The position numbers and the translations under genes are program-made. The notes below the pieces were generated by a model. That model was not told the DNA's origin. It did not search any database and saw only the letters and a program-made list of their open reading frames with translations. DNA of 39,078 nucleotides from a virus (taxonomy: Duplodnaviria > Heunggongvirae > Uroviricota > Caudoviricetes): IMG/VR virus record IMGVR_UViG_2711768071_000018, one strand, 5' to 3'. Positions 31,648-33,496 of the stretch are shown piece after piece (position 1 is the first letter of the stretch; every line of letters begins with the position of its first letter).

Positions 31648-33496
31648 ATGCTGCCGGTGCATTTATCTCCAGCATCAGACTTTCTATCTCAACGCCATAC
31701 GCTGCATTTTTTGTAACATCCGTCAGCGTCAGCGCATTCAGTCCCAGTGTCAGACTGTCTTTTATAACCTGGAATGCCGGGCCAGCCACTCCATTCAGTT
31801 TCGGAGTAACCGTGGCACTGCCGGCGGTGAACACCAGCTCCAGCGTCTGCCAGTCGTTACCGTAATCGCCGAACTCCCCCAGCTTCGTGTTTCCGGCTTT
31901 CCTGTGATGCATCAGATTCACTCTGCCGTCAGTGGTCTGAGTGAAGTACGACATCAGGAACGGATTACCGGTACCCGTCATCGCCACACCATCAGGAACG
32001 GGAGCATCCGTATACAGATAAATCCCCAGCCCGAACTGATTGTTGGTCAGTGCGCCTGACAGGCGGAACTTACAGGTCAGTCTGCCGCCCTGTGTCAGCA
32101 GGGTAATTGCGTCATCCACCGGATGCGTCAGGGACCAGGTTTTATTGCTCTGCTTGGTGATCTTAAATACACCATCTGACAACTGAATTCCGCCATCCTT
32201 AATGCTCCAGCCCTGCGCAGCAGCCTCTCCGGCTGCCGGCAGCAGGGAGATTGTGCGAACGGACGTATCTGCAGACGGACCCGATGGCGTGTTGCCGCCG
32301 GGCGAGGGTTTGATTTCCGGTGCCTTACCACTGATGAAGGCTGAGGTGCGCCCGGCTGCGTTCAGAATAGCGGTTGCCAGACGATCCGGAATAATGCTCC
32401 TGCGCGCCCATGAACTGAAATGTGTCGGGCGGTTTGATGATACCTGGTTTCCATTCGTTCTCGATGCCGCACCGTAATATCCTGATGCCGGAATATCCGG
32501 ATCTTCTGCCGGCGCGTTAGTGGCGGTATTGACGCCGTTACCGTCTGTCATGAAGGGCACAAAATAAACGCCCTCACTCTCCCTGTTTTTATACCCGCCG
32601 TACACGGTGTCGTACTGGGTAGCGTATGTATTTTTCCAGTAATACGTCGTGTCACCACAAACCCACGGCACATCTGCAGCACTGCCACCATGGCACTGCG
32701 CGTTAAACACGGAGAGGTCAGCACGAAACTGTGTCAGCATGGCTGTAAACAGCGCAGGTTGCTGTGCGTGGGTGGCGGCGCTCATGTCAAACTCTCCCTG
32801 CATCCAGCACACCGCCAGCAACACATTTTTCGGGTTCTTCTGTAATGCAGCTTTAGTGCGCGCAATCAGGTCCTGATATAACGGTTTACCCACACCCCAG
32901 CGTGCCGAATCCTGGCTGGCCCCCGTGTCCGCACTGAATGTCCCCTCAGCGCCCTAGGTGAATGCAGAACCACCACGACAGCATGGTACCAGCAGGATCC
33001 CCGCGTTATTCGGGATATACGGAAGCAGTTTTTTGGCAATATGTAAGCCCTGGCCGACACAGCCGTACTGCCCTTTGCTCAGGTCTGCCTTCGGATGATT
33101 CAGCGTACTCATATCCTGCACATCATGCAGGCAGTGGTCGGCCGGAATAATATCGTTATATCTGCAGGCAGCCCCACCCGGCGTAACTGTACTGCGGCGC
33201 GCCAGCTGTTTAATGCGCGGATCCGGAGCATCGTATGAATCCGGAAGCGGAAGCCCTTCCCCGTAAGCCATTGCATTGGACTGCCCGGCCAGTACGATGA
33301 CGTAGTACCAATCCGGCTCAGTTGCACCACTGACCACCACATCACCTTCTGCTGCAATCGCCTGCATCAGGGTATAAGGGGTTATGGCCACCGGACTACC
33401 AAACGGCTGCCAGCCCTCTTTCAGTTTGTGTGTCAGCTTTTCCGCAAGGTCTGACGGCGACGCCGCCCTGACAACATCATAATGTTTAATCGACAT
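31646..33496 (-). pseudogene. nanS: NanS-p-type sialate O-acetylesterase interrupted by one in-frame amber codon
   Basis: ORFs 32954-33496 (N-terminal domain plus SGNH/DUF303 block VLAGQSNAMAYGEG) and 31646-32893 (esterase remainder plus C-terminal domain) are in the same frame, separated only by a TAG at 32954-32956 and 20 sense codons. Confidence 0.7.

Follow-up and report, generated by a model that had tools for sequence, protein, structure and literature searches.

An amber codon in the nanS-p-type esterase gene of an stx-negative Escherichia coli prophage, at a position where intact relatives carry a Dcm site

We analysed a window of 39,078 nucleotides (the whole stretch of DNA under study) that belongs to a lambda-like, stx-negative prophage. 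Our analysis showed that its nanS-p-type sialate O-acetylesterase gene is interrupted by one in-frame amber codon, and this is very likely a genuine, recent and vertically inherited nonsense allele in which Gln181 was changed to amber.

Reading frame, ancestral codon and gene identity

The features of the gene, all on the minus strand of the window, are listed below.

31646..33496, minus strand: nanS-p-type sialate O-acetylesterase pseudogene, 616 sense codons with one internal amber and the natural stop at 31646-31648
32954..32956, minus strand: amber TAG, codon 181, in place of CAG (Gln181) by homologue alignment
32953..32957, minus strand: former Dcm site, now CTAGG, CCAGG in relatives; the mutated inner C is at 32956
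32957..33496, minus strand: N-terminal fragment of 180 aa, predicted to be translated; complete DUF1737, linker and the first ~120 esterase residues
33347-33487, minus strand: DUF1737, residues 4-50 (Pfam PF08410, E 6.7e-16)
33275-33286, minus strand: block I GQSN, residues 71-74, with Ser73; 5′ of the stop by motif position
32957-32983, minus strand: CCRGGSAFT block; 5′ of the stop by motif position
31649..32953, minus strand: untranslated rest of the frame, 435 codons; matches to Pfam SASA (partial) and DUF6645, and to 6YP6
32891-32893, minus strand: GTG, first possible restart codon (ORF listing)
32792-32806, minus strand: WMQGE block, residues 231-235; 3′ of the stop by motif position
32420-32431, minus strand: RPTH, residues 356-359, with His359; 3′ of the stop by motif position
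31658-32236, minus strand: lectin-like C-terminal domain, residues 421-613, by its match to 6YP6

The first-pass annotation had described two ORFs of one frame, split by a lone TAG at 32954-32956 in a CCTAGG context. Read directly, the letters of the plus strand at 32953-32958 are indeed CCTAGG. The minus-strand codons are ACC (32959-32957), TAG (32956-32954) and GGC (32953-32951), within the context TTC ACC TAG GGC GCT, and the mutation lies at 32956, where the minus strand has T and the plus strand A. In the ORF listing, an ORF of 180 aa (32954..33496, minus strand) stops at this TAG, and another of 415 aa (31646..32893, minus strand) lies in the same frame. Translation of 33496..31646 gave 617 codons with stops at codons 181 and 617 only, which agrees with the split being due to the one TAG. 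The frame is open from the first base past the TAG, and the 415-aa "ORF" therefore merely begins at the first GTG there. The 1851-nt frame aligns without gaps, at 99.8% identity, to intact 616-aa genes annotated as "SASA family carbohydrate esterase". This indicates that the colinearity of the two ORFs is not due to chance.

Domain searches bore out that both ORFs belong to a single NanS-p-type gene. The intact homologue has the Pfam order DUF1737 (PF08410, residues 4-50), SASA (PF03629, 66-262) and DUF6645 (PF20350, 467-577), and the same order PF08410-PF03629-PF20350 was found across the two fragments of the interrupted gene. In the intact homologue, residues 59-379 matched the structure of NanS/YjhS (3PT5, E 1e-121) and residues 421-613 that of the C-terminal domain of NanS-p (6YP6). 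An architecture of DUF1737, esterase and C-terminal domain has been reported for NanS-p (PMC10462455, PMC8065619), and RPTH, RSSH and RASH are known variants of SGNH block IV (PMC10462455). Matches to the 1.95-kb region were found in 284 phage records and in 2,190 of the 5,426 complete E. coli genomes searched. Both collections annotate a single gene of 616-631 aa there, called SASA family carbohydrate esterase, yjhS or 9-O-acetyl-N-acetylneuraminic acid deacetylase. The window's gene thus has the late-region position in a prophage, the three-domain order and the SGNH blocks GQSN and RPTH that mark NanS-p. Its ORF is, however, interrupted by the TAG at codon 181, and it is therefore a nanS-p pseudogene allele rather than a functional member of the family.

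The check proposed with the first-pass annotation, that the aligned codon in intact homologues be CAG, was run on eight homologues: the Stx1 phage Stx1_14040, the phages 434, YYZ-2008 and JLK-2012, and the E. coli strains 14EC007, DEC5B, PV15-279 and 2014C-3011. All eight, compared base by base, read ACC CAG GGC opposite the window's ACC TAG GGC, with the CAG inside CCAGG. In O157:H7 PV15-279 and in strain 2014C-3011, the surrounding 61-mer differs from that of the window at the mutated base alone. Since every intact homologue examined has CAG, the ancestral pentamer was CCAGG, a Dcm site. The Gln codon CAG begins with the inner cytosine of this site, and a change of this C to T gives TAG. One point mutation, as had been claimed, accounts for the split. 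Judged from these alignments, the direction of the change is from C to T, and T is the derived base. The closest intact alleles (encoding WP_000023174.1) differ at 3-4 of 1851 nt and have no indels; the differences are Q181*, I279V, V608M and one synonymous site. With so few differences, the disruption is a recent one and due to a single transition.

Distribution of the T-bearing allele and its prophage setting

The T is carried by three contigs. Over the 16,125 bases compared, the window and contig CYGA01000023.1 (GCA_001284285.1) do not differ. Among 153 billion gene positions searched, only three contigs encode the exact 180-aa product. The two sisters with the T are CYEU01000064.1, with 6 SNPs per 10,404 nt, and CYBW01000067.1, with 1 SNP per 6,365 nt; they are the same sequences as the two TAG contigs of IMG/VR, in which CAG occurs on at least 120 contigs. 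Because two sister assemblies 6 SNPs and 1 SNP apart from the window also have the T, it was inherited and is not a random error. I279V, which lies 3′ of the stop, is absent from CYEU01, and the TAG therefore predates I279V. The exact T-bearing 61-mer had no match in the 5,426 complete E. coli genomes, 479 of which match it with at least one mismatch (one mismatch at best). The TAG allele likewise had no match in the GTDB representative genomes or the JGI metagenomes. From these comparisons we conclude that the T is a mutation passed on by descent and confined to a single small lineage. None of the 47 sampled IMG/VR sequences has another mid-gene nonsense allele; three of them have a different 3′ end. 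This suggests that the ORF is normally maintained and that the present loss is recent.

It is highly improbable that the T is a sequencing or assembly artefact, arising from an error at methylated motifs or from the mis-collapse of nanS-p paralogues, and that the gene is really intact. The three T assemblies do come from one project and accession series, probably with a common sequencing and assembly pipeline, and near-identical nanS-p copies, present at a median of 2 and a maximum of 15 places per genome, may confuse short-read assemblies. However, the three isolates were assembled separately, have different contig structures and have diverged by 1-6 SNPs. All of the window's other 86 CCWGG sites are intact, and this speaks against an error common to the motif. 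No known paralogue has the T that a mis-collapse would need, as the lack of exact matches in the complete genomes shows. The contigs also have breaks of the repeat type, which would be typical of short reads and hence free of methylation-dependent base-calling error. The split itself is already visible in the deposited annotations, which give two CDSs, "phage protein YjhS..." and "YjhS". In a scan for other nanS-p copies in the same isolates, none of the matches listed came from their IMG genomes.

All three TAG assemblies break within ~100 nt beyond hokD, where the window ends (39078). At that point complete relatives have an IS481-family transposase, and in one relative the integrase is frameshifted. 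The break beyond hokD is probably due to an IS copy.

The interrupted gene lies in a late region read entirely from the minus strand, in the order Q-like antiterminator (36518-37060), tRNAs (34577-34829), tciA/tciB, nanS-p (31646-33496) and P21-type holin (30993-31199), with lysozyme and lysis genes downstream of nanS-p, 3′ on the holin side. The same synteny was found in Stx1 phages and in phage 434. The homologous gene is downstream of stx1 in Stx1a phages, and in phage 434, JLK-2012 and many stx-negative prophages it is found at the corresponding position. Just 5′ of nanS-p there is a match to the Rfam STnc100 sRNA (33634-33806, minus strand; 101.5 bits, E 1.5e-22). A GC-rich hairpin followed by a T-run (33591-33609), terminator-like in appearance, lies ~95 nt 5′ of the nanS-p start codon, and at the corresponding position of phage 434 a terminator is annotated.

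Effector genes are found at the prophage end: espJ (1-654, plus strand), cif (3047-3895, minus strand) and an nleH/OspG-like kinase gene (4119-5009, minus strand). This is a Cif-type effector prophage of attaching/effacing E. coli, and its host, a diarrhoeal isolate, is an E. coli of the atypical EPEC type. According to PMC6267907, CYBW01 is an atypical EPEC strain isolated in Pakistan from a human, which fits espJ, cif and nleH at the left end of the window. An IS21-family element (~5100-7200), with an IstB-like ATPase ORF (5607-7178, plus strand), adjoins a side tail-fibre gene (7222-8037, minus strand) of which only the N-terminal 271 aa are present. In relatives, the side tail fibre consists of a 437-aa N-terminal protein and a C-terminal part. 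The tail-fibre gene is thus apparently interrupted, which suggests that the prophage is partly defective.

Cause of the C-to-T change

The first-pass annotation had held that the context fits deamination at a Dcm site, and we regard 5-methylcytosine deamination at this site as the most plausible cause, and on the whole a probable one. In the proposed series of events, the Dcm methylase of the host would methylate the inner C of CCAGG at its 5 position, and the 5-methylcytosine would deaminate spontaneously to T, turning CAG into TAG. The T:G mismatch would then escape Vsr very-short-patch repair and be fixed at replication. The fit is consistent and concerns one event only, and our population tests spoke neither for nor against it.

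CCWGG is an accepted hotspot of G:C>A:T change, countered by Vsr very-short-patch repair (PMC13250602, PMC2715241, PMC3527292), and the inner C is the established place of the very transition seen here. Of the G:C>A:T transitions as a whole, those at CCWGG sites nevertheless make up only a small part (PMC13250602). In the ancestral gene, 192 single-base nonsense changes are possible, 46 of which are GC>AT, and 6 of these fall on Dcm target bases; a Dcm coincidence by chance would therefore be expected for 3% of all nonsense changes and for 13% of the GC>AT ones. To our knowledge, dcm is near-universal in E. coli. The classic amber hotspots of lacI are reportedly those of Coulondre et al. 1978, and these hotspots, together with the mutation accumulation of Lee et al. 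2012, are said to indicate a roughly tenfold excess per CCWGG site. A C5 methylase encoded by the phage was considered as the source of methylation and was rejected, as the sole methyltransferase of the window (34879-35928) belongs to the N6/N4 family.

A real C-to-T change independent of methylation, arising by replication error or from an unmethylated C that was deaminated to uracil and escaped Ung, is possible but rather unlikely. The chance of coincidence given above (6 of 46) and the small share of transitions at CCWGG would allow it, and three further results are in line with it. Between the prophage and five relatives, C/T differences were not enriched at Dcm targets, the ratios being 0.76-1.0 in the larger comparisons; the single Dcm-target hit in each prophage comparison is probably the codon-181 site itself. 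Among 47 distinct IMG/VR alleles, none of the 12 Dcm targets varies, as against 110 of 1015 other C/G positions. The same TAG did not recur in ~2,400 other copies, searched with a degenerate pattern in IMG/VR and with a synthetic Stx1-type TAG 61-mer in the 5,426 genomes. This suggests that the site is not a conspicuous hotspot at the population level, although purifying selection could hide recurrences. On the other side stands the established hotspot at the inner C, and in all three tests only ~1 count was expected under the null. Being of such low power, and being confounded by selection against nonsense changes and by Vsr bias, the enrichment and recurrence tests do not refute a Dcm origin.

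Consequence for the protein and the question of suppression

The first-pass annotation had regarded the gene as inactivated. This stands for the esterase, whose activity we infer from the motif positions to be lost, but not for the DUF1737 module, which lies wholly 5′ of the stop and is still encoded; strictly, it is the enzyme alone that is inactivated. The stop falls midway through the esterase domain. Translation would end after residue 180, keeping DUF1737 and Ser73 and losing WMQGE, His359 and the C-terminal domain. As these all lie 3′ of the stop, the predicted 180-aa product would have neither an SGNH fold nor a Ser-His pair. A restart at the GTG at 32893 would be no rescue, since such a product would not have the nucleophile Ser73. 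Only rare natural read-through of UAG or an amber suppressor of the host could restore the esterase. A suppressor that inserts Gln (supE-type) would restore the original protein. In the 3PT5 alignment, the residue of chromosomal NanS opposite Gln181 is Ala, and any residue inserted by a suppressor would therefore probably be tolerated. In such phages late transcription is Q-antiterminated, and polarity on the downstream lysis and morphogenesis genes is therefore unlikely.

No suppressor tRNA was found in the window by ARAGORN or Rfam; the tRNAs are a tRNA-Arg(tct) and one with a CAT anticodon only.

34577-34653, minus strand: tRNA-Arg(tct) (ARAGORN)
34667-34746, minus strand: 80-nt tRNA-like remnant between the two tRNAs
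34754-34829, minus strand: tRNA with CAT anticodon (ARAGORN)

O55:H7 DEC5B has a tRNA-Arg(tcg) at the place of the 80-nt element. The element still has the acceptor-stem ends of that tRNA (CCGCCAT...ATGGCGGTCCA), but its interior has diverged. It has a cloverleaf-like fold with a 3-nt "anticodon" loop, and the same 100-nt gap is present in Z1323HEC0423. The element was rejected as a suppressor: it was called neither by ARAGORN, even with relaxed settings, nor by Rfam, and a CTA anticodon is lacking. It probably represents a tRNA in decay.

Upstream of nanS-p, tciA (TerB-family, ~33975-34440, minus strand) is a pseudogene with a TAG at 34269-34271 and a frameshift near the N-terminus. By sequence, its stop is common to 14EC007 and DEC5B, and PGAP reports an "internal stop" in 14EC017 and Z1323HEC0423. 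Being common to other strains, the tciA stop is older than that of nanS-p. We rejected the idea that it reflects a second Dcm event or amber recoding, since the change from GAG to TAG is a transversion, does not lie at a Dcm site, is older and comes with the frameshift. That two ambers are found is unremarkable, as ~46% (88/192) of the possible nonsense changes in the nanS-p gene give TAG.

We consider it very unlikely that the amber is tolerated or functional, whether because a host suppressor keeps the full-length enzyme or because the 180-aa fragment is a stand-alone DUF1737 capsid or accessory protein. According to a 2026 preprint on phi24B (bioRxiv 10.64898/2026.04.10.717836), the DUF1737 of its NanS-p decorates the capsid and is parted from the esterase, and here DUF1737 is complete upstream of the stop. 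The allele has also persisted in three isolates since diverged by several SNPs, Gln181 is not critical given the Ala of chromosomal NanS, and the neighbouring tciA pseudogene has a TAG as well. However, the window encodes no suppressor tRNA, and the tciA TAG, an older and unrelated change joined by a frameshift, is a matter of decay. The prophage has lambda-type head genes including gpD, not the T=9 capsid of phi24B, and its DUF1737 is of a subtype 55-57% identical to the Stx2a-phage type and without the SISSP processing motif. On the latter two grounds a retained structural role of the fragment is speculative. To a retained state, with a stand-alone DUF1737 product and low-level esterase formed through UAG read-through or a host suppressor, we give very little credence. 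If true, NanS-p would be switched between a purely structural and an enzymatic form by way of a methylation hotspot.

Comparison of DUF1737 (window 33317-33496) with phage records revealed two subtypes whose first 31 residues are near-identical. The subtype of the window is >90% identical in Stx1a and Stx2c phages, and that of Stx2a phages has a longer linker with SISSP. If DUF1737 binds the capsid, the two subtypes might go with different types of capsid.

The two deposited CDSs belong together as one nanS-p pseudogene, and strain-level prediction of growth on O-acetylated sialic acid should leave this copy out. As the allele shows, a lineage can lose the esterase portion of NanS-p. If DUF1737 is a general capsid module, such alleles would be useful as natural separation-of-function variants.

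Compared with the NanS-p of EHEC (933W z1466, the EDL933 and O104:H4 alleles, and phi24B vb_24B_21/gp84), the window's gene has the same late-operon position between Q/tRNA and holin and the same order of DUF1737, SGNH/SASA esterase and lectin-like C-terminal domain. The SGNH block variants are also the same, with RPTH as block IV as in Stx2 phage 86 (PMC10462455, PMC8065619), and the gene is 99% identical at the DNA level to the alleles downstream of stx1 in Stx1a phages. Unlike the EHEC genes, it has an amber at residue 181 and lies in an stx-negative effector prophage; it has 616 aa as against 636-657 aa in the Stx-phage alleles, with a shorter DUF1737-esterase linker that has no SISSP. With chromosomal NanS (YjhS, 3PT5) it shares the GQSN, CCRGGSAFT and WMQGE blocks and that of the catalytic His, all conserved. 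Chromosomal NanS, however, has neither the DUF1737 nor the C-terminal domain and has Ala in place of Gln181, whereas the window's gene is prophage-borne and truncated.

The logic of the change is identical to that of the CCAGG hotspots of lacI and lambda cI, where C(5mC)AGG becomes CTAGG and an in-frame CAG becomes TAG. The lambda cI hotspot is countered by VSP repair, according to the account of Lieb 1991 given within PMC2715241 (background also in PMC13250602 and PMC3527292). Those hotspots are recurrent and were found by experiment to be dcm-dependent, whereas the present case is one natural event that did not recur in ~2,400 other copies. It is an instance from nature of the textbook amber change from CCAGG to CTAGG, here in an accessory gene of a phage. 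It is a real but ordinary pseudogenisation, in which both the NanS-p family and the CCAGG-to-CTAGG route to an amber codon were already known.
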